From assembly GCA_963704645.1 (NCBI GenBank), contig OY969926.1:864001-928000 (forward strand): 64,000 nucleotides of DNA. The letters are read 5' to 3'. Position 1 is the stretch's first letter, and each line of letters starts with the position of its first letter. This DNA is from an uncultured bacterium (lineage in GTDB: Bacteria > Patescibacteriota > JACMRA01). This document shows, piece after piece, positions 2,815 to 55,456 of this stretch. The notes beneath the pieces were generated by a model. The model made no database searches, was not told the origin of the DNA, and saw only the letters and a list, made by a program, of their open reading frames with translations. The position numbers and the translations under genes are program-made.

Positions 2815-3648
2815 TTATTTAGTCAATAAACCTGCTAGCTGACCTTGAATTTTTTGCACTCCTATAACCGCACCAGTATTAGTAGTTATCAATTGTTTTC
2901 TGTGAGGGAGTATATCAATATCAGGAGTTGTAATTGTGGGTTGCGGTACAGCTGAGATGATAGGCGTTGTTGTTTGAGGCTGTATATTTGTAGATTCGGG
3001 CCCTCCTCCTGGTGTTGCAGGTCTACTATCTCTCGTATGAGGCTGCGGTTGATTTTCTCCTACAAAATTTTCTGGTTTAGGAGGTTGATCGATTGCTGCT
3101 GGCAGGGAATAGGAATTAATATTGTCTTGAGGCTTACTACTCGCTTGAATCTCAGGATTTATATTACCTAGACCTACGCTTGGCATGAAGTCTAGGTTAT
3201 TATTCAAAATTGACTCTGAAATAGATTGCTCTTCTTGCGGCGGTGCAGTAATGCTAAGTGGCTTAGAGAAATCGATACTAAAATCAGTCTCTTTGGCGTC
3301 ACTCAAAAGTGGTGGAGTAGTTTGGCTGGCTGGTTCGACGCTTTTTGGAGTTTGAAAAGAAATTGGCTCTGCAGGGAAAAGTGGAGTTGTAGGAAGAGCG
3401 CCAATTGGTTTAGGGGCAATGCTACCTTCAGATGATGGCGGTACCTGTGGAATAGTACGAGCCTCTCTTAATTTTTTCAGTTTTTCAGCTAATGAAGTTG
3501 AGTATGTTGATTGCTCAGGCAGGAAAGTTTTAGGAAGGGGAGATACTGGAGCCTCATTAATTTTAACTGGTGCAATAGAGCCAGAACCAGGTGTAGATGG
3601 AAGTGTAATTGGCAATGTAAATAATGGGGCTTGTTCTTGAGGTTGCAT
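2815..3648 (-). CDS. Pro/Ser/Thr-rich low-complexity hypothetical protein
   Basis: 277-aa ORF with ATG start and disordered composition, converging on the mraY-like gene. Confidence 0.65.
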   Translation of the reverse strand: MQPQEQAPLFTLPITLPSTPGSGSIAPVKINEAPVSPLPKTFLPEQSTYSTSLAEKLKKLREARTIPQVPPSSEGSIAPKPIGALPTTPLFPAEPISFQTPKSVEPASQTTPPLLSDAKETDFSIDFSKPLSITAPPQEEQSISESILNNNLDFMPSVGLGNINPEIQASSKPQDNINSYSLPAAIDQPPKPENFVGENQPQPHTRDSRPATPGGGPESTNIQPQTTTPIISAVPQPTITTPDIDILPHRKQLITTNTGAVIGVQKIQGQLAGLLTK

Positions 3649-19329: not shown

Positions 19330-20475
19330 ATGTCATTTCAACGAGATATGGAAGATTTTCTTCTGTATTGTGAACTAACCAAGCAGTATTCTGAAAACAC
19401 TGTGCGTAATTATAGGGCTACTATGGAGCGCTTTGGAAAGTTTTTGGAGGTTAGGCAAATAGCTAGAACTAACCAAATTGATATTGATATTGTGAACCAA
19501 TACCGTGTTCATTTAAACAAGCAAGAAAGCATTAGGGGAGATAAAATTAGTTTGAAAACTCAGGCTTATCAAATTGTAGTGTTAAGGTCCTTCTTAAAAT
19601 TTTTAATTAAAAATGGGGCTTTGGTTCTTTCTCCAGATAGATTGGAATTGCCTAAAACTAGAATGCGAAAAATTGAATTTTTAAATGAAACTGAGGTTCA
19701 AAAGCTAATTCATGTAATTATTCAAGATTCGGCTAAAGTTGCAGATGTTCAAAAGAAACGTAATCAGGCCATAGTTTTAATTTTGTTTGGTTCAGGTTTG
19801 CGTTTGTCTGAATTGCTAAGTTTGAAAAAAGCCCAAATTCCATTGTGGAAAGGAGAGGTTGAATTGGAGGAAGAAAATGCTAGTGTTGATAGTAACCCTC
19901 AAGAAAATGGAAGGAGCGTAGAAATTGTGAATGGTGATTTAAATCAAACTCTAAGTTTAGAGTCTGGACTTCCACAAAGTTCAACACTAGAAAAAGATAT
20001 TCCTATACAAAATACACCTAGAAATGAAACTACAAGCCCAGAAATGAGCGACAATCAGCTATTAATTCAAGGTAAAGGTGGAAAAGTCCGCTCGGCTTTT
20101 TTGGCTCCGGCTTCATTAGAAGCAATTCATGAGTATTTAAAAATTCGTGGGGAAGACGAAAACCCTTGGCTGTTCATTTCTTTTAGTAAAAACAGAACTA
20201 AAGATTTAAAAAAACAAAAACCATTAACTCCAAGAATGGTTCAGTTAATGTTACAAAGTTATGCCAACAGATTGGGTATTTATAAGCACGTTACGCCACA
20301 CACACTTCGTCATAGTTTTGCCACAAAGGTTTTAACTGAAGGAGGAGATTTGCGTTCGGTGCAGACTTTGCTTGGCCATTCTAATATTTCTACCACTCAA
20401 ATTTATACACATGTTAGTGACTGGCAAATTAGAGATTTACATTCCAAAGTGTTTGGCAAGAAAGAGGGGAAATAA
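19330..20475 (+). CDS. XerC/XerD-type tyrosine recombinase with a large acidic insertion
   Basis: SAM-like N-domain (YSENTVRNY); catalytic residues in GLRLSE, GKGGK, HTLRH, LGH and TQIY all intact. Confidence 0.93.
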   Translation: MSFQRDMEDFLLYCELTKQYSENTVRNYRATMERFGKFLEVRQIARTNQIDIDIVNQYRVHLNKQESIRGDKISLKTQAYQIVVLRSFLKFLIKNGALVLSPDRLELPKTRMRKIEFLNETEVQKLIHVIIQDSAKVADVQKKRNQAIVLILFGSGLRLSELLSLKKAQIPLWKGEVELEEENASVDSNPQENGRSVEIVNGDLNQTLSLESGLPQSSTLEKDIPIQNTPRNETTSPEMSDNQLLIQGKGGKVRSAFLAPASLEAIHEYLKIRGEDENPWLFISFSKNRTKDLKKQKPLTPRMVQLMLQSYANRLGIYKHVTPHTLRHSFATKVLTEGGDLRSVQTLLGHSNISTTQIYTHVSDWQIRDLHSKVFGKKEGK

Positions 20476-34556: not shown

Positions 34557-34585
34557 TTGACATATTGTATAATATTGTATACAAT
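34557..34585 (+). promoter_or_regulatory. TA operon promoter TTGACA-17-TACAAT with operator palindrome ATTGTATACAAT
   Basis: Perfect 12-bp palindrome at 34574-34585 overlapping the -10; ATATTGTATA occurs twice in tandem. Confidence 0.7.
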
Positions 34586-34893: not shown

Positions 34894-34895
34894 TT

Positions 34896-35138
34896 ATGTA
34901 TAGTATAGAATTTTTAAATGATTTCTGGAAAGTATACAATAAACTTGCAAAAGGAAACTCTGTTCTGCAAAAAAAGTTTTTTAATTGTTTAGATAAAATG
35001 GCAGTCGATCCGTTTTATAGTTCTTTAAAAACCCATAAAGTAGATAGTAAAAAATACAAAAATGTATATTCAAGCTGGGTAAGTAGCTATGTTAGAATAA
35101 AATATGGTTTATGGGAAGAAGATTGGCTGAAGTGTTAA
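34896..35138 (+). CDS. RelE/YafQ-like toxin, probably C-terminally truncated
   Basis: F.K.Y.KL, DPFYSSLKTHKV and YSSWV..VRI motifs; lacks the usual final strand/IG.H end. Confidence 0.65.
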   Translation: MYSIEFLNDFWKVYNKLAKGNSVLQKKFFNCLDKMAVDPFYSSLKTHKVDSKKYKNVYSSWVSSYVRIKYGLWEEDWLKC

Positions 35139-35141
35139 AAT

Positions 35142-47771: not shown

Positions 47772-48935
47772 CTAAAACAAATGCTTAGGGTTTAGCCTAA
47801 CTTGCAGGCGTTTTTGTAAAGCTAAAGTTCCTATAGTTTGCCTTAGTGTACTAAATTTAGTGTATCCTTTAGGGTATCTTATCAATATATGGAAGGAATA
47901 CATGTTTTTTCGTCTTAAAAAACGTGCAGGGTAGGGTGAACCTACTTCAATTTCTGGCATTTCTGCTTTAACTGTGAAAATATAGTTTTTCAAATCTTGC
48001 AGAACGTTTAAGGCCACACTTTTGTCTTTTTCTTGGGAAGTAATTAGTAGAAGATTATAAAATGGAGGAAACTTAAATTTTTCACGCAAACGTTTTTCTT
48101 CTTCCAAAAAAGTATTGTACCAATTTAAAATGGTTTGATATTGCGGGTGAATTCTGTTCAACCTTAAAACTTCTTTAAAAAAACTATTCTCTGGGTTGGT
48201 TGTATCAAAATATATATGACAAGCTGGGTTTACCTGGTTTAAAACCTCGGCCAACTGCTTGTGCACGTCTTCTTGAACCAGATAATCTGGGCTGGCTAAC
48301 AAATTATCGGCTTGAACAAAAACAATTTTATTGAAAATAGAATAATTAATTTGTGGGTCATAAACCCTTACACTTACAGCATTTTGGCCATCTACAAGGG
48401 CTTCTAAAGTATCACTTAAAATGTTAGATTTTCTTTTATTTTCGCTAATTTGTATTATAAAACTGTCTTGTTTCTGTAAAAATTCTATATTTTCCTCATC
48501 AATTACACCATTAGGCATTGCTGAAAGTAGTGTTTCAAAATTTGCCCCCTCATCTGATTTTTCATCTTTTGGAAGATTATCGATCGTATTCTTGTCTTTT
48601 CTTTTGGAAACTTTTTCTGTTTTTAACCAATCTGGAGTAGGGGACTTTCCTGCAAAATTATATGTTTTAGTTTCGCTTAAATTGTCTAAAACGTTAATAA
48701 GCTCATCAATTCCGGCAAAAATAGAAGAAAAGTTTTGGCCATGACAACTTGGACACTTGTTTGGATAGTTATAAAAAGTTTGGCATTGGTGACAAACCAA
48801 CTCTAATTTATAAGGCGAAGTTCTATAAGTTACTAAATTAGCATCACAATTTTGACATTGAAAATTATGCCCACAATCTTGGCAACGTGTTAACTGAAAA
48901 AGCCCTCTTCGGGGGTGAATGTATAAGGTTGGCAT
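47772..48935 (-). CDS. priA: PriA C-terminal half (Cys-rich Zn region, degenerate helicase lobe 2, CTD)
   Basis: HPRRG, CQDC..CQNC..CHQC..CPSC, FPPF and PYPA motifs. Confidence 0.85.
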   Translation of the reverse strand: MPTLYIHPRRGLFQLTRCQDCGHNFQCQNCDANLVTYRTSPYKLELVCHQCQTFYNYPNKCPSCHGQNFSSIFAGIDELINVLDNLSETKTYNFAGKSPTPDWLKTEKVSKRKDKNTIDNLPKDEKSDEGANFETLLSAMPNGVIDEENIEFLQKQDSFIIQISENKRKSNILSDTLEALVDGQNAVSVRVYDPQINYSIFNKIVFVQADNLLASPDYLVQEDVHKQLAEVLNQVNPACHIYFDTTNPENSFFKEVLRLNRIHPQYQTILNWYNTFLEEEKRLREKFKFPPFYNLLLITSQEKDKSVALNVLQDLKNYIFTVKAEMPEIEVGSPYPARFLRRKNMYSFHILIRYPKGYTKFSTLRQTIGTLALQKRLQVRLNPKHLF

Positions 48936-48970
48936 TTTGAATTACTTTGGTGTCTTCTAAACTTTGAGCC

Positions 48971-48999
48971 TGTCATACCGATCTTGTTTCAGAGTCTAA
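48971..48999. repeat. Degenerate inverted copy of REP-like family A
   Basis: TGTCATACCGATCTTGTTTCAGAGTCTAA vs consensus reverse complement TGTCACCCTGAACTTGTTTCAGGGTCTAA. Confidence 0.7.
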
Positions 49000-49023
49000 A
49001 ACTTAATCTTGTCTCATTCATGT

Positions 49024-49047
49024 ATGGCTCGCAAGCTTCGCTGCTAC
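49024..49047 (-). repeat. REP-like family B copy
   Basis: ATGGCTCGCAAGCTTCGCTGCTAC. Confidence 0.8.
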
Positions 49048-49148
49048 TTTATATGTTCTCAATCAAGCAAATACTGGTCAAATTGACTTTTGGGATAAAG
49101 TGTGATTCCAATGTATAAGGAAAAAGTTTAATCTGAGGCATAATTATT

Positions 49149-49544
49149 TTGGAAAAAATTGAAGTTGGAGCTGATGGTATTATTGCATATTTGTTGAAGA
49201 GCAGGAAAGCAGGGAAATATATATTTTTTAACAATACTCCAGTGTCGGTATTTATTTCTAGGTGGGAAGACAACGAAGGCCAAGTTTTAAAAGATATTGA
49301 AATTTTACCTCGTGAATTTGGCTTAGAACCAATTGATTTCACTTCAGAAAATGAAATTTCTTCTCTATTTGATAACTCGACATTAAATATTTATATACTA
49401 CAACTATTTGTAGTGGTCGATGATCCATCTTGTAATAAACTAGTAAAAAAGTTTTACCGTTCTTGTCAGTTTGGTGACGTTCTAGTAAGTTATTTCTCAC
49501 CTATAGACTTCTACGAACATTTTCAATTTAATGATGATCTGTAA
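49149..49544 (+). CDS. ORFan cassette protein between the priA halves
   Basis: TTGACT promoter, GAGG SD, terminator CTCTCAA...TTGAGAG-T tract. Confidence 0.6.
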   Translation: MEKIEVGADGIIAYLLKSRKAGKYIFFNNTPVSVFISRWEDNEGQVLKDIEILPREFGLEPIDFTSENEISSLFDNSTLNIYILQLFVVVDDPSCNKLVKKFYRSCQFGDVLVSYFSPIDFYEHFQFNDDL

Positions 49545-49692
49545 TTTGGATATGTAAGATTAGCTCTCAACACCTTGCTTGAGAGTTTTTTTGTTGCAAG
49601 ATGAAAGTAATATAATATGGAAGCCATATCATCTATCTTAAAAAGCATATATTTTATTTGAAATAGGAGATAATCTCCACTCGCTGTTTTAT

Positions 49693-50745
49693 TTAATGGT
49701 TTGTTGTAGAAGACTTTGCCAAATCTGAAAACCTAACTGAGGGGAAATTACTTTGATAATATAAATCCGAACCAAATTGCGAAGCTAAAATATAAGAAGT
49801 TTCACGTACATCAAAATATAATCCACCTTGTTCTTGAATATGCATTGAATTACTTTCGTCTATAACAAAAATTGCTGAAATTTGGTTATAAGGTAAAAAT
49901 AATCCAGCTCTGGTTGTAAAATATACATTTTTCTTTATATTTTTTGAATCTGGAAGCAAAAGGCTTTTTATTGTAGCTTTAGAGGCTTTATCTTTCCCAG
50001 AGGTAAAACTATATAGATGAACATCTGAAAACTCCTTTAAATTGATTTGTGAAAGCCATTTTTTTAAAAGTTTAATTTCTGGAAAGATAATTAGGGTATT
50101 TTTATACTGTACGTTTCGTATAAGGTACATTATACGTAGTATACTTTCTATATCCCCGTTTTTATCTTTATCTGTAATATTTTCATTATTAAAGTGTAAA
50201 TATTCAGTTTTACCAATTTTAATGGAATCAGGTTTTTGTGAAACTCCAAAATTATTATTTGGGCTGGAATTTTCATTTTTTGCTAAAATTTTATTATTGT
50301 AATTTTCTGTGATAATTTTCCAATCGGCTTTTATTAACAAATTAAAACTTTCAAGGCCGGCAGATAAAACTCTGTTCATGCTACTGAAATTGTTAAAAGC
50401 AACACTTTGCCAAAAATTCATTAAGTTGGATGAAAAAATGTATGGTAAAATATTTTCAATTGGTTTAACTTCGTATTTAGACTTCGCTATTTCCTCTGAA
50501 GGCAACGTTTGGGCAGATTCAACTTCTTTAGGGAAATTACCAATCAACTCTGAAGTTTCATCGTTATCTACAATTTTAGTCGTTTCCTTGCTCTCCACCC
50601 TACTCTGTTTGAAAATAACCCCTTTTTCTAAAGTATTTCTTATAGAGACTTCAACTAGCTGGCCAATTGCTAAATCTTCCTGTGAAGAATAGGTTAAAAA
50701 GCTGATAGGTAAAAGCTTTTCGGTTAAAACAGCATAATGATACAT
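49693..50745 (-). CDS. priA: PriA N-terminal half (3'-DNA-binding domain plus degenerate helicase lobe 1)
   Basis: LTY..L.IGQLVEV..R....GVI, LIIFPE, TTRAGLFLP, VIDE, FDVRE and SNFPS motifs; no intact Walker A. Confidence 0.8.
   Translation of the reverse strand: MYHYAVLTEKLLPISFLTYSSQEDLAIGQLVEVSIRNTLEKGVIFKQSRVESKETTKIVDNDETSELIGNFPKEVESAQTLPSEEIAKSKYEVKPIENILPYIFSSNLMNFWQSVAFNNFSSMNRVLSAGLESFNLLIKADWKIITENYNNKILAKNENSSPNNNFGVSQKPDSIKIGKTEYLHFNNENITDKDKNGDIESILRIMYLIRNVQYKNTLIIFPEIKLLKKWLSQINLKEFSDVHLYSFTSGKDKASKATIKSLLLPDSKNIKKNVYFTTRAGLFLPYNQISAIFVIDESNSMHIQEQGGLYFDVRETSYILASQFGSDLYYQSNFPSVRFSDLAKSSTTNH
50113..50140. other. Putative dif (Xer recombination) site GTTTCGTATAA-GGTACA-TTATACGTAGT
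   Basis: 11-6-11 architecture with inverted CGTATAA/TTATACG arms; KOPS-like octamers converge on it. Confidence 0.75.
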
Positions 50746-50796: not shown

Positions 50797-51372
50797 TTAT
50801 TTTGCATTTTTCAGTATTAAATCAGCAAATTTGGGCGTAACGTCCGTAAGTTCAAAACTGTTTTCTGATATTTTAACCGAAGACACAAGTAAATCTTGTA
50901 TAGACTTTTTTAACTTATTACTCAAAAACTTTATTCCTAGTTGTTTTCCATCTTTATAATTAGTTATGAAGTATTCAGAGATGAAACTTTCAGTTATTAT
51001 TTGCAAATTATCCTTTGAAAGCTTAGAATCTATCCACTCTCCATAATAATCAAGTACAATAACTGCAATTCTGTTGGCAATTTCTTTCTCTGTTTCAGTA
51101 TTATCAAGTTTTTTATCTTTTAGGTTTGTAATTTCTTCCAAAATATAATCCTCTTCGAAATCTTCTAAGCTAAAGCCAATTTTAGCAGCTGTACTATAAG
51201 CATATTTTAAAATATCTTCATCATTACTAAAATTATATTCAACTGCCTCTGGAATATATTCAACTAAATCGCCTTCCTCGCCATCAACCGCCACAAAACC
51301 TGGAATTTGTTCTATATCTTCATCGTTATGATTCGTTTCAGCCTGATCAACTATTTTTTTTAGAGATGCCAC
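50797..51372 (-). CDS. Acidic hypothetical protein
   Basis: Overlaps the end of the upstream giant ORF, consistent with an operon. Confidence 0.7.
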   Translation of the reverse strand: MASLKKIVDQAETNHNDEDIEQIPGFVAVDGEEGDLVEYIPEAVEYNFSNDEDILKYAYSTAAKIGFSLEDFEEDYILEEITNLKDKKLDNTETEKEIANRIAVIVLDYYGEWIDSKLSKDNLQIITESFISEYFITNYKDGKQLGIKFLSNKLKKSIQDLLVSSVKISENSFELTDVTPKFADLILKNAK

Positions 51373-54300
51373 TGTCTAATTCCTTAAACAAGTTTGCTAT
51401 TGCTTCAATTTTTTGCCTACTTTCTGTTAGTTTAAAAACAAAGTTACCAGTTGGGTCAGTTAGTACAGTTGTTGCAACTAACATATTTCCTAGTGATACT
51501 TGTTCTGACGGGCTTAAAGCGAAGTTATTTTTAAGAAATTCATTTGCAGCATTAGGACTTTGTTCTGGTTTTACATCGTTAGTATTTAAGTAATCAATGA
51601 ACTTTTGGGCAATAATTTCCGCAGAAACATTATACATTGTATTTTCAATTTCTTCGTTACTTAAATTAATTTTTAATACAGACACACCCTGAATATTTTT
51701 TTCAAATAAACTATCTGTAGTCTTTTCAATTTTTTCTTTGTCTGCAGATTCAATAAATTTTCTATTATTTACAAATTTAGTAAAGAAATCATACGCTAAG
51801 TCATCAATCTTATCAGCATATGTATATCTTAGTTGTTCCTTACTTATATCTTCTGTAGAAGTTGTTATACCTACATTTTTGATTGCTGAAATTAACAAAA
51901 AATGGGAGGGTTTTGTCTCTTTATTCTGTTGAGTTAGTTGTGCAATTTCTAGTAAAGCTGATTGTATTGGTATTATACTTTGCTGGTTAAAATTGTTCTT
52001 ACAAAATTCAGCAACAATATCATTAATAGCCTCTTTTTCTGTAGTTGGCTTTACTACTTCTTTTAAACTTATAATTATATCTTCCACTACTATATTTAGT
52101 GTAGTTTGGTTAATACCATCAGATTCTGACATTGCATTACTTTCATCTATCTGTCTGTTAAAACGAAGAATAAATTCTGATTCCTGAAGTTTGGGTTTAT
52201 ATCCAATTTTGTTTACTAAACCAGCAAAAACTTTCAAAGCTTCATCTGTAGCAGCATTTTCCCATGGGGCTGGCAACGGAACTACGTCTGACTGATAATT
52301 TTGTAGGAATTCATGAGCTAAATCAGTATTGAAAACTATATATTTACCATCACCTTCCAATACAGAAAGAGCGAGTATTGTTTTAAGACTCGATGCGTTA
52401 ATATTCGTTAAATTTGTACGTTCCCTTATAAACATCTCTGCGGCAACATTTACATTTAAAGCTGCGGTACTATTATCATTTAGATATTCTGTAAACTTTG
52501 CTAGCAATTCTGTACTCGCTAAATCTAAAGAAGCTTCATCAATATTGCTAACTAATTTATCGTCAATCAAGTCCAATGCTTTGGCACTAAGATTTGTTTC
52601 TTCATCACCTTGTAGAACATATCCAATAGAACTTAGAATGTTTTTTGATTTTTCTGAAAGATCGCTGGAATTAATAGACTCTGCTGATGACAAGTTTAAA
52701 TTCATATTTGGATTCGAAATTTCAACTTTAGGTTCAATTACAATAGCTGGATTAGGCAATACTGGCTCTAAACCATCTACTAAACCTTCGCTTTTAGGTT
52801 TTGGTTTAACTTCTAAACTATTATCAATATCAATAATTGGTTTTACTGGAGATGGTGTTGTTTCTGAAGAATTAACTACTGGTTTTTTTTCTTCATTAGA
52901 AGTTGATTGAGCTGCACTGCCCTCAAACTGTTCTTTTAATTTTGAAGTTATAAATTTTTTGTAGTCATCTTCTAGACCAACAACAGTATCATCGCCGAAT
53001 TTAGATCCAATAATTAAATCTGTAAAAGCATTTCTTGTTTGAACATCTTTAATATTAGTGCAAAATTGTGACATAAAACCACGAACGATCGCTTGCCTCT
53101 GAACAGTGGTGTTGTTTGTTGAGTTATAAATAACTTCAGCATTTACCTTAATTTTATTGTCAATAAATAATCTTCCTTGAAGTGCTAGTTCCTCTGTTAA
53201 TGTTTTCAAAAGAACATCGTTCATTTTTTCTACATTATAATTACCATTATTATCAATAATTACTTCCTGCATCCATTTTCCATTTTTATATTTATCGCTT
53301 ACTAAGTTAGGGTCTAAACCAATTTGCTTTAGCCTATCACTAAACATGTTATTGTATAGTTCTTTAACTTCTTTTTGTTTTTCTAAACCTTTCTTAATTT
53401 CATCTTGCTTTTTTTCGATTGCATATTGTGCTAACTCCTTATTTTGGAGCATATCATAATATTTTTCTTGAACCTTTTTGCCCACATCAGCAGATGTTAA
53501 TTGTTCTGTTGAATTAACCATTTCGTAAATAAAAGGGGCAAATTTAATCTCTTTATTTTGATCTAGCCAATCTTTTGTGAATATCTTCCTATCGCCTCCA
53601 ATTGAAAATAGTTCAGCTTCTGCTTGATCTATTATACCTTCTTTCAACCACTCTTTAACCCAAGCTTCTTTTAATTTATCTTTCATGTTTTTAATTTCAT
53701 TACCCAGCCTATGATTAAGTTGCTCTTGAGTTCTCACATTTAGGTTATTTTCAGAATATATCATCTTGAAGCGAGGTGAAACATCGGTATGGGTTAAACC
53801 AAGCACTTTATCTAAAATATCATAGGGGTCTACATTTTCATCTAAATCTCCTTTTGATTCAATACTATCTTTTAAATCTCGATATCTTTCTTTGATTGCA
53901 TCTTCCTTGCTTTGAGGCGCTTTGGGAATTAATATGGCTTTTGGTAAATCTGCGTCAGCGTTTTCTGGCACATCAATTAAATTTTGAGGATTATCAACGA
54001 TTTCTGTTTTAATATCTTCCTTAATTTCTACCACAACAGTTTCAGATGTCTCAGTATCTTTTGTTTCTGGTATAATAACATCAAGCGTCTCTATAGTTTT
54101 TTTGTTTATTAATTCTAAATCTAAATTTTCAGCTGGTGGTATAAGTGTTTCCGCAATACTAGATCCAATTTCATTGATAACTGGAGGTGCAACAACTAAA
54201 TCTTCCTCAATTTGTTGGGGTGGTTGTGCCACTTCTGGTATTTTGTATTTAGCTATTGTATAACTTCCATCATTTGCAGCACATAAAATTCTATTTCCTT

Positions 54301-55456
54301 GCAATGGTAAAAGTGCGTAGAAATCTTTACCTTCTTTACTAAAGGCAAATTGACCTGGAGTTAAAATACCACCATTTTCAACTTTGACTCTTTTACCCTC
54401 TAAAGCTTTAACTGCATTAGAAAGATATTCTCTAACTGTGTCTGGATTTGCTCTTTCACCTATAAAATAACGCTCTTTTTCTGAGTCAATAAACAGTGGA
54501 TTTCCGTTATCAAAATGAGTTAAATTTATTAAATTTGGGTTAGCTGCAATTTTTTCTAAAACATCAAAAGCTTTTGCAGTAGGTGGTAATTCTCTTGTAT
54601 ATTCTAAGCCTGTTAAAAATAGATCTGCATATTGCTGCATTTCTAGAGCCGATCTATTAAGCTTCTTAAATTCCTTTAAAACCAGTAATAAAATTTTAGG
54701 ATCAGCTTGAATGTTGTGTTGTTTGAAATATTTTGACACTTGGTCAACAGTATCTAAATAAAAAAGTGATTGATTTTTTTCAATAATTTTAGTTTGTTCT
54801 ACCATTGCTTTACGGTCGAAACCTATATTTTTTAGGGCTGAATAAAAATTAGTACATGAATTATTATACTTTTCTATAACAAGCTCTTTTGCTGCTTCAG
54901 CTTGTTGCCTTTTTTTTAAATTCTTAGTATCTTCACTTTCATAACCAAATCTAGAGGCGACTGCATTATACGCATTACCTACCATCTTATCAAATTTACC
55001 TTTTTTTGGTTCAGGTTTTGCAACAAAAGATATTTCTATTTTTAATTGTTCTGGGTTATTAACAAAATTTTCTGGTGTGTTATTTTCTGGTGATGTTGTA
55101 GGCCTGATATCTTTGTTAATATTTACTCCTTGTTTCTGTGAATTTTGTCCGTCAGCAATTAGTTTATCAAGATAAGATAATTGTGCATAAGGAATCTCTG
55201 CGGAATTTGGTCTTTCTATTTGAACACTTTCACTTGCCACTGCTCCAGCACTTTCAACACCAATATGTTCTGGAACTTCATTTTCTTCAATAATTCCAAT
55301 CTGACTAGATTTTTCTGCTTTGGAATTTCGCGCTTCTGTAGCTCTCTCAATAATTTTTTCAAGTTCGGGATTTGGCTCTGTTTTACCTACCACACTTGAA
55401 CCAACTACCTTTGTATCTACTGTGTTGTAAATTTGTGGTTCTCTTGGCTCTGGCAT
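51347..55456 (-). CDS. Large (1369 aa) acidic hypothetical protein with repeated helical C-terminal domains
   Basis: Long uninterrupted ORF; internal similarity KFTEYLNDN/KFIDYLNTN. Confidence 0.8.
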   Translation of the reverse strand: MPEPREPQIYNTVDTKVVGSSVVGKTEPNPELEKIIERATEARNSKAEKSSQIGIIEENEVPEHIGVESAGAVASESVQIERPNSAEIPYAQLSYLDKLIADGQNSQKQGVNINKDIRPTTSPENNTPENFVNNPEQLKIEISFVAKPEPKKGKFDKMVGNAYNAVASRFGYESEDTKNLKKRQQAEAAKELVIEKYNNSCTNFYSALKNIGFDRKAMVEQTKIIEKNQSLFYLDTVDQVSKYFKQHNIQADPKILLLVLKEFKKLNRSALEMQQYADLFLTGLEYTRELPPTAKAFDVLEKIAANPNLINLTHFDNGNPLFIDSEKERYFIGERANPDTVREYLSNAVKALEGKRVKVENGGILTPGQFAFSKEGKDFYALLPLQGNRILCAANDGSYTIAKYKIPEVAQPPQQIEEDLVVAPPVINEIGSSIAETLIPPAENLDLELINKKTIETLDVIIPETKDTETSETVVVEIKEDIKTEIVDNPQNLIDVPENADADLPKAILIPKAPQSKEDAIKERYRDLKDSIESKGDLDENVDPYDILDKVLGLTHTDVSPRFKMIYSENNLNVRTQEQLNHRLGNEIKNMKDKLKEAWVKEWLKEGIIDQAEAELFSIGGDRKIFTKDWLDQNKEIKFAPFIYEMVNSTEQLTSADVGKKVQEKYYDMLQNKELAQYAIEKKQDEIKKGLEKQKEVKELYNNMFSDRLKQIGLDPNLVSDKYKNGKWMQEVIIDNNGNYNVEKMNDVLLKTLTEELALQGRLFIDNKIKVNAEVIYNSTNNTTVQRQAIVRGFMSQFCTNIKDVQTRNAFTDLIIGSKFGDDTVVGLEDDYKKFITSKLKEQFEGSAAQSTSNEEKKPVVNSSETTPSPVKPIIDIDNSLEVKPKPKSEGLVDGLEPVLPNPAIVIEPKVEISNPNMNLNLSSAESINSSDLSEKSKNILSSIGYVLQGDEETNLSAKALDLIDDKLVSNIDEASLDLASTELLAKFTEYLNDNSTAALNVNVAAEMFIRERTNLTNINASSLKTILALSVLEGDGKYIVFNTDLAHEFLQNYQSDVVPLPAPWENAATDEALKVFAGLVNKIGYKPKLQESEFILRFNRQIDESNAMSESDGINQTTLNIVVEDIIISLKEVVKPTTEKEAINDIVAEFCKNNFNQQSIIPIQSALLEIAQLTQQNKETKPSHFLLISAIKNVGITTSTEDISKEQLRYTYADKIDDLAYDFFTKFVNNRKFIESADKEKIEKTTDSLFEKNIQGVSVLKINLSNEEIENTMYNVSAEIIAQKFIDYLNTNDVKPEQSPNAANEFLKNNFALSPSEQVSLGNMLVATTVLTDPTGNFVFKLTESRQKIEAIANLFKELDSGISKKNS

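Follow-up and report, generated by a model that had tools for sequence, protein, structure and literature searches.

What does a nearly symmetric 28-bp DNA element do when it is written, in frame, into the coding sequence of priA? The question is raised by a 64,000-nucleotide stretch from an uncultured bacterium (GTDB lineage Patescibacteriota; JACMRA01; assembly GCA_963704645.1, contig OY969926.1, positions 864,001 to 928,000), hereafter the window, whose source genome (label G000) is a single contig of 1,272,640 bp with 33.4% G+C. At window positions 50113-50140 (genome 914,113-914,140) we read GTTTCGTATAA-GGTACA-TTATACGTAGT, within which perfect 7-bp inverted arms, CGTATAA and TTATACG, occupy positions 50117-50136, so that the 11-6-11 site described in a first-pass annotation of this DNA is present as claimed. 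Its coding role was also read correctly there, with the minus strand of the site encoding L-R-I-M-Y-L-I-R-N, residues 203-211 of a 350-aa open reading frame (ORF) that represents the N-terminal part of PriA (PriA-N). We consider it probable that this element is the chromosomal dif site of a single-recombinase Xer system, held in frame in the priA N-terminal coding sequence. The window features on which the argument draws are the following.

50113..50140, no strand assigned: putative dif-type site, 28 bp, 11-6-11 layout (sequence read; unique in genome; class consensus)
50117..50136, no strand assigned: invariant core CGTATAA-N6-TTATACG, in which 7-bp inverted arms flank a 6-bp centre that differs from genus to genus
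49693..50745, minus strand: PriA N-terminal part, 350 aa, the host gene (PriA profile matches; ortholog alignments)
47772..48935, minus strand: PriA C-terminal part, 387 aa, with a Cys-rich region and PriA_C (TIGR00595 priA, E 6e-27; PriA_C, 37 bits)
19330..20475, plus strand: Xer-like tyrosine recombinase, 381 aa, sole PF00589 gene of the genome and proposed enzyme, 29.6 kb from the site
34894..35141, no strand assigned: gap between convergent genes holding the global maximum of cumulative guanine-cytosine (GC) skew (genome 899,134), marking the replication terminus zone

Seen within one genome, the palindrome alone is ordinary. Perfect 7-6-7 inverted repeats number 85 in the genome and 6 in the window, an 11-6-11 frame pairs at 8 or more of its 11 places at 3,344 genome positions, and shuffled windows are expected to hold 0.20 matches each to the exact pattern at up to 2 mismatches (at least one match in 19 of 100 shuffles). 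With repeats and near-palindromes this common and the window shuffle test non-significant, we dropped palindromicity as evidence. The first-pass annotation had suggested checking uniqueness, and here the result was clear: the 28-mer occurs once in the 1,272,640-bp genome, the next best matches carry 8 mismatches, and there is one exact core. The significance of the site arises only through comparison with other genomes.

Is the element kept by relatives? Our comparison set comprised 41 genomes (the source genome and 40 relatives), 27 of which make up the class discussed below. Searching with the 22 specified bases of the 28-mer (up to 3 mismatches, with a reversed-sequence control) gave matches in 15 of 24 same-family genomes and in the single sister-family genome, and none in the 15 genomes from other families of the phylum; the reversed control matched twice in the 41 genomes. 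The exact 14-base core CGTATAA-N6-TTATACG was present in 25 of the 27 class genomes, its reversed control in none of the 27, and the site stood in frame within priA in 24 of them. Metagenome contigs scanned with the PriA-N alignment supplied another 20 loci, with the exact core in all 18 that cover the region (the remaining two contain only the 3' end of the PriA-N gene). PriA-N orthologs are present in 25 of 26 family genomes, the source genome counted, and those outside the genus share only 25-34% identity with the source protein; in the ortholog alignments the LRIMYLIRN segment forms a conserved island between two hypervariable, indel-rich flanks. Read in coding orientation, the class consensus is T-n-CGTATAA-[TGTAYM]-TTATACG-n-A, with arms invariant in 22 of the 23 in-gene sites, T at -1 in 21, A at +22 in every one, and a 6-bp centre that exists in ten versions and is identical in the congeners G000 and G001.

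Does this conservation belong to the DNA or to the protein? Judged by codon usage in an alignment of 28 PriA-N fragments, 24 of which span the site region, constraint at the core is shown to act on DNA rather than on protein. The string CGT ATA Axx xxx xTT ATA is kept in 23 of 24 orthologs, and the next codon is CGN in 22 of those 23, the exception being G022 with AGA; the G013 copy, on a second contig piece, is in frame as V-R-I-R-N-I-I-R by hand translation. The first motif arginine is CGT in 23 of 24 orthologs, whereas three other conserved arginine columns of the same alignment mix AGA, AGG and CGN (entropy 2.07-2.31 bits), and the two motif isoleucines are ATA in 24/24 and 23/23, as against 5/19 and 2/23 in two other conserved isoleucine columns. 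Motif residue 3 varies among M, I, K and R and residue 9 among N, S, T and I, and both codons always begin with the arm base A. Synonymous-site conservation, which the first-pass annotation had named as a telling comparison, is therefore present, with motif codons frozen in the orthologs and codons mixed elsewhere.

These codon data also bear on the idea that the conservation stems from the gene product, be it a selected PriA peptide with a local codon preference or a messenger RNA (mRNA) hairpin that tunes translation, which we regard as highly improbable. Such a property would suit the 17-sequence protein alignment, which shows no variation at R204 and I205 and hardly any at I209 and R210, as well as the capacity of the arms to form a 7-bp stem. 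However, the other invariant arginine and isoleucine columns of PriA-N are saturated with synonymous variation, the arm base is retained where the residue varies, compensatory changes number zero among 41 sites, and seven copies of the site lie in intergenic DNA outside priA. The hairpin was rejected as a candidate, its fold energy being ordinary (-7.5 kcal/mol, z -0.28, with 74 of 200 shuffles folding as well). Between them, the intergenic copies and the codon comparison appear largely to refute an explanation by the gene product.

Where does the site sit on the chromosome? The cumulative GC skew of the source genome reaches a single minimum at 250,921 and a single maximum at 899,134, with coding strands diverging at ~249,820 and converging at ~862-899 kb. 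The site lies 14,979 bp (1.2% of the chromosome) from this global maximum, on a plateau (898-923 kb) that separates the last rise of the skew from its first fall. The first-pass annotation had called for a comparison with the skew extremum, and the site is indeed near the global maximum, where gene orientation also converges. We place the origin at 250-300 kb, as indicated by skew sign, coding-strand divergence, the orientation of transfer RNA (tRNA) genes in the 250-899 kb interval (21 plus, 7 minus), seven DnaA-box-like words clustered at 288-299 kb, and the location of parB (227,277) near the skew minimum. Third-codon-position skew showed a local plateau at 898-923 kb and a global maximum at 1,054 kb (vs 899 kb for total skew), and was left unused for position because we judged it confounded by gene strand. 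Among eight contigs of relatives, each from another species, the site falls 0.5-1.5 kb from a local skew maximum in three (G020, G022, G010), at a change of skew slope in two (G019, G005), and in a plateau or 28-41 kb from the skew maximum in three (G007, G009, G014); how these contigs are oriented is irrelevant, since reverse-complementing leaves a maximum a maximum.

A better dif site at the skew switch would speak against this one, as the first-pass annotation had pointed out, and none was found. The only better palindrome, ATTGTATA-N6-TATACAAT at window 34564-34585 (G000:C1:898564-898585), is intergenic, pairs at 9 of 11 positions and lies 570 bp from the skew maximum; it was rejected as unconserved, being exact only in the source genome with 26 other class genomes searched (three 1-mismatch matches fall at unrelated places), and is probably a local operator or a chance occurrence. 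Four other ATAA-N6-TTAT sites between 870 and 930 kb are less palindromic (4-7 of 11 pairs).

Which enzyme would act on the site? The first-pass annotation assigned it to the Xer gene at window 19330..20475, and that assignment holds insofar as this is the sole PF00589 (tyrosine recombinase) gene in the genome and scores as Xer-like, though its NCBIfam scores all stay below the equivalog cut-offs: 205.3 bits for XerA (cut-off 220), 200 for XerC (335) and 187 for XerD (330). The Pfam scores are 125.6 bits for PF00589 and 45.2 bits for PF02899 (the N-terminal SAM-like domain), and the catalytic R, K, H-x-x-R, H and Y were read by eye, without a reference alignment. Each of the 27 class genomes has an ortholog of the recombinase, at 47-83% identity, a much closer conservation than that of PriA-N, and gene and site share one contig, 6-43 kb apart, in G000, G001, G012, G014 and G022; in G002 the recombinase gene is ~20 kb from the PriA-N fragment adjoining the unassembled site. 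The partner machinery is represented by RecA and by FtsK_SpoIIIE and FtsK_gamma within one 770-aa frame.

Two further observations concern the recombinases. In the source enzyme the catalytic domain is interrupted by an insertion of ~60 aa, at roughly residues 170-238 and with many S, N, E and Q residues, and a shorter insertion is present in G001, while the recombinase ORFs of most relatives are 320-368 aa long. Apart from this enzyme, the genome yielded a single site-specific recombinase, a large serine recombinase (G000:C1:73690-74142, a 540-aa frame), which may mark an integrated element.

How closely does the site resemble recombination sites already described? With dif it shares the 11-6-11 layout, the ATAA-N6-TTAT core, single copy, terminus position and a variable centre. 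Two of these likenesses can be set beside PMC2731167, where distances of 7-90 kb from the skew maximum are given for dif, bracketing the 15 kb found here, and the centre varies between species while the arms are conserved, as in the class sites. In classical XerCD systems dif has a XerC and a XerD arm, whereas here there are two like arms and one recombinase. The first-pass annotation likened the left arm to a XerC-type arm; the resemblance to classical XerCD dif extends to the inner core only. With the Agrobacterium tumefaciens dif, as printed in PMC2731167, used as probe, the site scores 16/28, which 1,552 genome positions equal or exceed. The top matches to this probe (19-21/28) are scattered over the genome, and none was accepted as a classical dif.

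Closer parallels are found in the systems that, as here, have one Xer per genome, namely archaeal XerA/dif, XerH/difH of epsilon-proteobacteria, XerS/difSL of streptococci and XerL/dif of Legionellales. These are described, in the parts of the literature accessible to us, as having a near-palindromic site, with conserved arms and a variable 6-bp centre, in one terminus copy (PMC5357621, PMC2958812, PMC2731167, 10.1101/2021.09.12.459815), and, like the class, as having the recombinase gene near the site in several genomes and look-alike sites on mobile elements. They differ in that their sites are non-coding with varying neighbours, while the class holds its site in frame in one conserved gene and with class-specific arms. 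The best NCBIfam score of the recombinase is to the XerA model, yet XerA hosts differ from the source genome, which has an FtsK with a gamma domain. We found no description of dif in such lineages, or in priA, in the literature searched, which lay mostly outside subscription journals.

A further likeness is to loxP of phage P1, a proven tyrosine-recombinase site. Its inner arms, TTCGTATA and TATACGAA, and its CGTATA-N8-TATACG spacing equal those of the class sites (going by Table 1 of PMC1479339), and by hand count the sites of some relatives agree with loxP at 23 of its central 28 positions. The first-pass annotation had found the whole site to resemble loxP, which holds for the inner arms and spacing but is only moderate for the source site as a whole (~21/34 by hand count, outside the top five genome matches to loxP). 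With its 13-bp inverted repeats, 8-bp spacer and a phage-plasmid setting that brings its own Cre, loxP agrees with the site only in the inner 8 bp and the spacing. No Cre-like second recombinase was found in a PF00589 search of the genome, and we rejected a loxP-type identity on these grounds.

Does the site occur outside priA? Beyond the priA copies we found seven more in the class, six with exact cores and one with a single mismatch, all intergenic, where by our own calculation ~0.016 exact cores per genome would be expected by chance. They lie on the following contigs.

G010:C8 (L058, L135; 12,824 bp): one-mismatch copy, with ParA, a toxin-antitoxin-like pair and a 98-bp terminal overlap
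G002:C13: extra copy, with ParA
G002:C21: extra copy, with ParA, UmuC and a 197-aa tyrosine-recombinase ORF 400 nt from the copy
G021:C9: extra copy, on a phage contig (CHAP, Mu_F)
G021:C42 (6.1 kb): extra copy, with a large serine recombinase gene starting 200 nt away
G016:C108: extra copy, with a helix-turn-helix (HTH) protein
G018:C119: extra copy, with genes of the kind seen in conjugative elements (AAA_10 ATPase, M23 peptidase)

Because of its 98-bp terminal overlap we take G010:C8 to be circular, making it a candidate small plasmid of the class; of the seven mobile contigs tested, it alone had such an overlap. The centres of the mobile copies differ from those of their hosts. Going by gene content, these copies appear to behave like plasmid Xer sites (cer, psi, pdif) and Xer-exploiting elements (IMEX), in which the Xer site of the host is found copied on mobile replicons; the class copies differ in having centres that are not the host's.

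The recombinase genes beside two of the copies raise the question of whether the site is a mere attachment site (attB) for mobile elements that bring their own recombinases, and does nothing for the host, which we judge very unlikely. The large serine recombinase gene 200 nt from the G021:C42 copy, the 197-aa tyrosine-recombinase ORF 400 nt from the G002:C21 copy and a PriA-N in G002 that is broken at contig ends around the site would all accord with it. A host, however, would have no reason to freeze synonymous positions for its parasites, as seen in 24 of 27 genomes and 18 metagenome loci; serine recombinases are patchy (11 of 27 class genomes) and the source genome has no second tyrosine recombinase; and the mobile copies not only differ from their hosts in the centre but were nowhere seen as two sites flanking an element among the 20 metagenome loci.

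The ParA contigs, in turn, bear on whether the site is an operator or binding site of some other DNA-binding protein, such as a divergent parS, a replication-terminator site or a regulator's target, copied by mobile elements. We consider this unlikely. The palindrome has an uncontacted-looking centre, and parS sites are known inside genes. Canonical parS, within 2 mismatches, was not found in the genome, though ParB is encoded there; ParA contigs account for three of the seven mobile copies, one of them 160 nt beyond the par genes; and dnaA lies 57 kb from the site, all of which would fit such a protein. Set against this, the genome has the site only once, at the convergence of G-rich strands and genes, and 687 kb separate it from the ParB gene, which lies near the skew minimum. 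ParA adjacency is inconsistent (0.4, 1.7 and 8 kb, and none near the other four copies), the plasmid partner proteins differ from chromosomal ParB, which makes a shared site unexpected, and the arms fit loxP-type and dif-type recombinase half-sites with the same spacing. For a terminator protein, one symmetric site makes a polar fork trap impossible.

Outside the comparison set, a scan of IMG/VR gave 39 contigs with the core, roughly of chance order by our own estimate, and no PriA-N on them. Some of these, phage contigs from unrelated samples (L178; L143, L163, L164, L169; L161, L172, L179; L168), carry longer lox-like palindromes around the core, including one with 14-bp arms equal to the loxP arm plus A (L178:2098-2119). 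These palindromes are mostly intergenic, with a tyrosine recombinase ~4 kb away in L143 and L164, and may be lox-type sites of phage-plasmids.

How, then, should the identification as dif be weighed? That the site is the chromosomal dif, as the first-pass annotation proposed, draws support from its uniqueness, its skew position, the frozen synonymous sites, the absence of a better rival and the presence of a sole, Xer-like recombinase, so that every computational check suggested there came out in favour. Several findings weigh against it, and the first group concerns position. The site is off the exact skew maximum, and a +/-30 kb skew-difference test at the source site was non-significant, 16% of random positions equalling it. 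The origin is usually expected where dnaA lies, and dnaA is at 856,615 (G000:C1:856615-857100), 42 kb from the skew maximum, in the zone of gene convergence and 57 kb from the site. Either the lineage has relocated dnaA away from its origin or it has an unusual replication map, and our placement of the origin at 250-300 kb rests on sequence signs, not on replication measurement. The eight relatives share ancestry, moreover, and the terminus position of priA may be one inherited arrangement rather than eight observations.

A second group concerns the distribution and the likeness. The G018 PriA-N has lost the motif and the only exact core of that genome lies terminally on a contig that looks mobile, in G003 neither PriA-N nor a site was found, the G002 chromosomal copy falls within an assembly gap, and the lack of any two-site-flanked element among the 20 metagenome loci counts here too. 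The classical proteobacterial dif does not pick the site out, and the resemblance is limited to the inner core. The G+C of dif is typically below that of its genome, and at 9/28 (32%) the site differs little from the genome's 33.4%, which leaves little room for contrast. Most plainly, dif is typically non-coding with varying neighbours, whereas this site is in frame in the same gene across the class. As far as the accessible text of each source goes, 96.3% of 161 dif sites were non-coding and 6 of 161 lay inside coding sequence in PMC2731167, 93.9% of predicted dif were non-coding and ~6% in coding sequence in PMC3025954, and the in-gene cases of both were mostly in hypothetical ORFs, with none described as a conserved arrangement. 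Finally, Xer binding and cutting at the site are predictions.

If the site is dif, two molecules of the Xer-like recombinase (19330..20475) would bind the two near-identical arms, and strand exchange across the 6-bp centre would take place between sister copies once FtsK joins them at the septum, thereby resolving chromosome dimers made by RecA. Recombination between identical sites would restore the same sequence, and the host gene would be left unharmed because of it. The DNA element would in this way dictate the PriA peptide R-I-x-x-[L/I]-I-R, and class plasmids, a phage and a conjugation-like element presumably borrow the host Xer for multimer resolution or integration. That Xer binds, where it cleaves, that it depends on FtsK and what the mobile-element copies do are what we infer here from the comparisons above.

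One may ask further whether the site is functionally coupled to priA. On such a proposal, which we hold to be doubtful, the DNA element and not protein function would have fixed the PriA peptide through the history of the class, and occupancy by Xer and FtsK would gate priA expression, or else the insertion of Xer-borrowing elements would silence priA and so couple replication restart with termination and dimer resolution; that PriA is split and without a Walker A motif could then be a by-product of that history.

What kind of PriA carries the site? Matches of the PriA-N ORF are weak but consistent, with NCBIfam PriA models at E 7e-8 to 7e-3 and a marginal Pfam PriA_3primeBD match (23.2 bits vs a cut-off of 22.7). 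In the source genome PriA is split in two ORFs by a gap of 757 bp (window 48936-49692) with minus-strand stops in all three frames. By eye, no GxGKT-type (Walker-A-like) motif was seen beside the site in any aligned PriA-N ortholog, and the PriA helicase of the class may on that account be inactive. The alignment ranges suggest that the site lies just after the position of a lost Walker A motif.

Several other features of the neighbourhood were recorded. Within the gap between the two PriA ORFs lies a 131-aa plus-strand ORF (49149..49544), and in relatives the PriA parts are ~40 nt apart (G019, G002) or fused in one 710-aa ORF (G025). Directly upstream of priA-N on the minus strand, window 50797-55456 encodes a 1,369-aa protein of low complexity and, in an ORF of 191 aa, a match to MACPF_D3 that falls short of threshold (24.4 bits against 25). 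Bin G012 (72% complete, 4% contamination) has a second PriA-N-like fragment without the motif segment (L032, G012:C83:1-2075), which may be foreign or a site-less paralog.

What would such a site mean? Lying between genes is taken to be a key trait of dif, and some schemes for finding it are confined to non-coding DNA (PMC2958812, PMC2731167). A dif kept in one housekeeping gene across a class would mean that the intergenic rule can fail and that non-coding filters would miss whole lineages. Sites of the dif type are themselves known, and what appears new is a single-Xer dif retained within a conserved gene class-wide. For an uncultured, small-genome lineage this would provide a defined 28-bp site together with a single small recombinase, a marker of the terminus in fragmented assemblies and, through the borrowed sites, a handle for recognising the lineage's plasmids and phages. 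As the arms share the inner half-site and spacing of loxP, the enzyme may interest students of Cre- and Xer-type DNA reading. For PriA, the site would offer a clean example from nature of an overlapping DNA element dictating part of a protein, with the arm bases fixed while the amino acids they help to encode vary.

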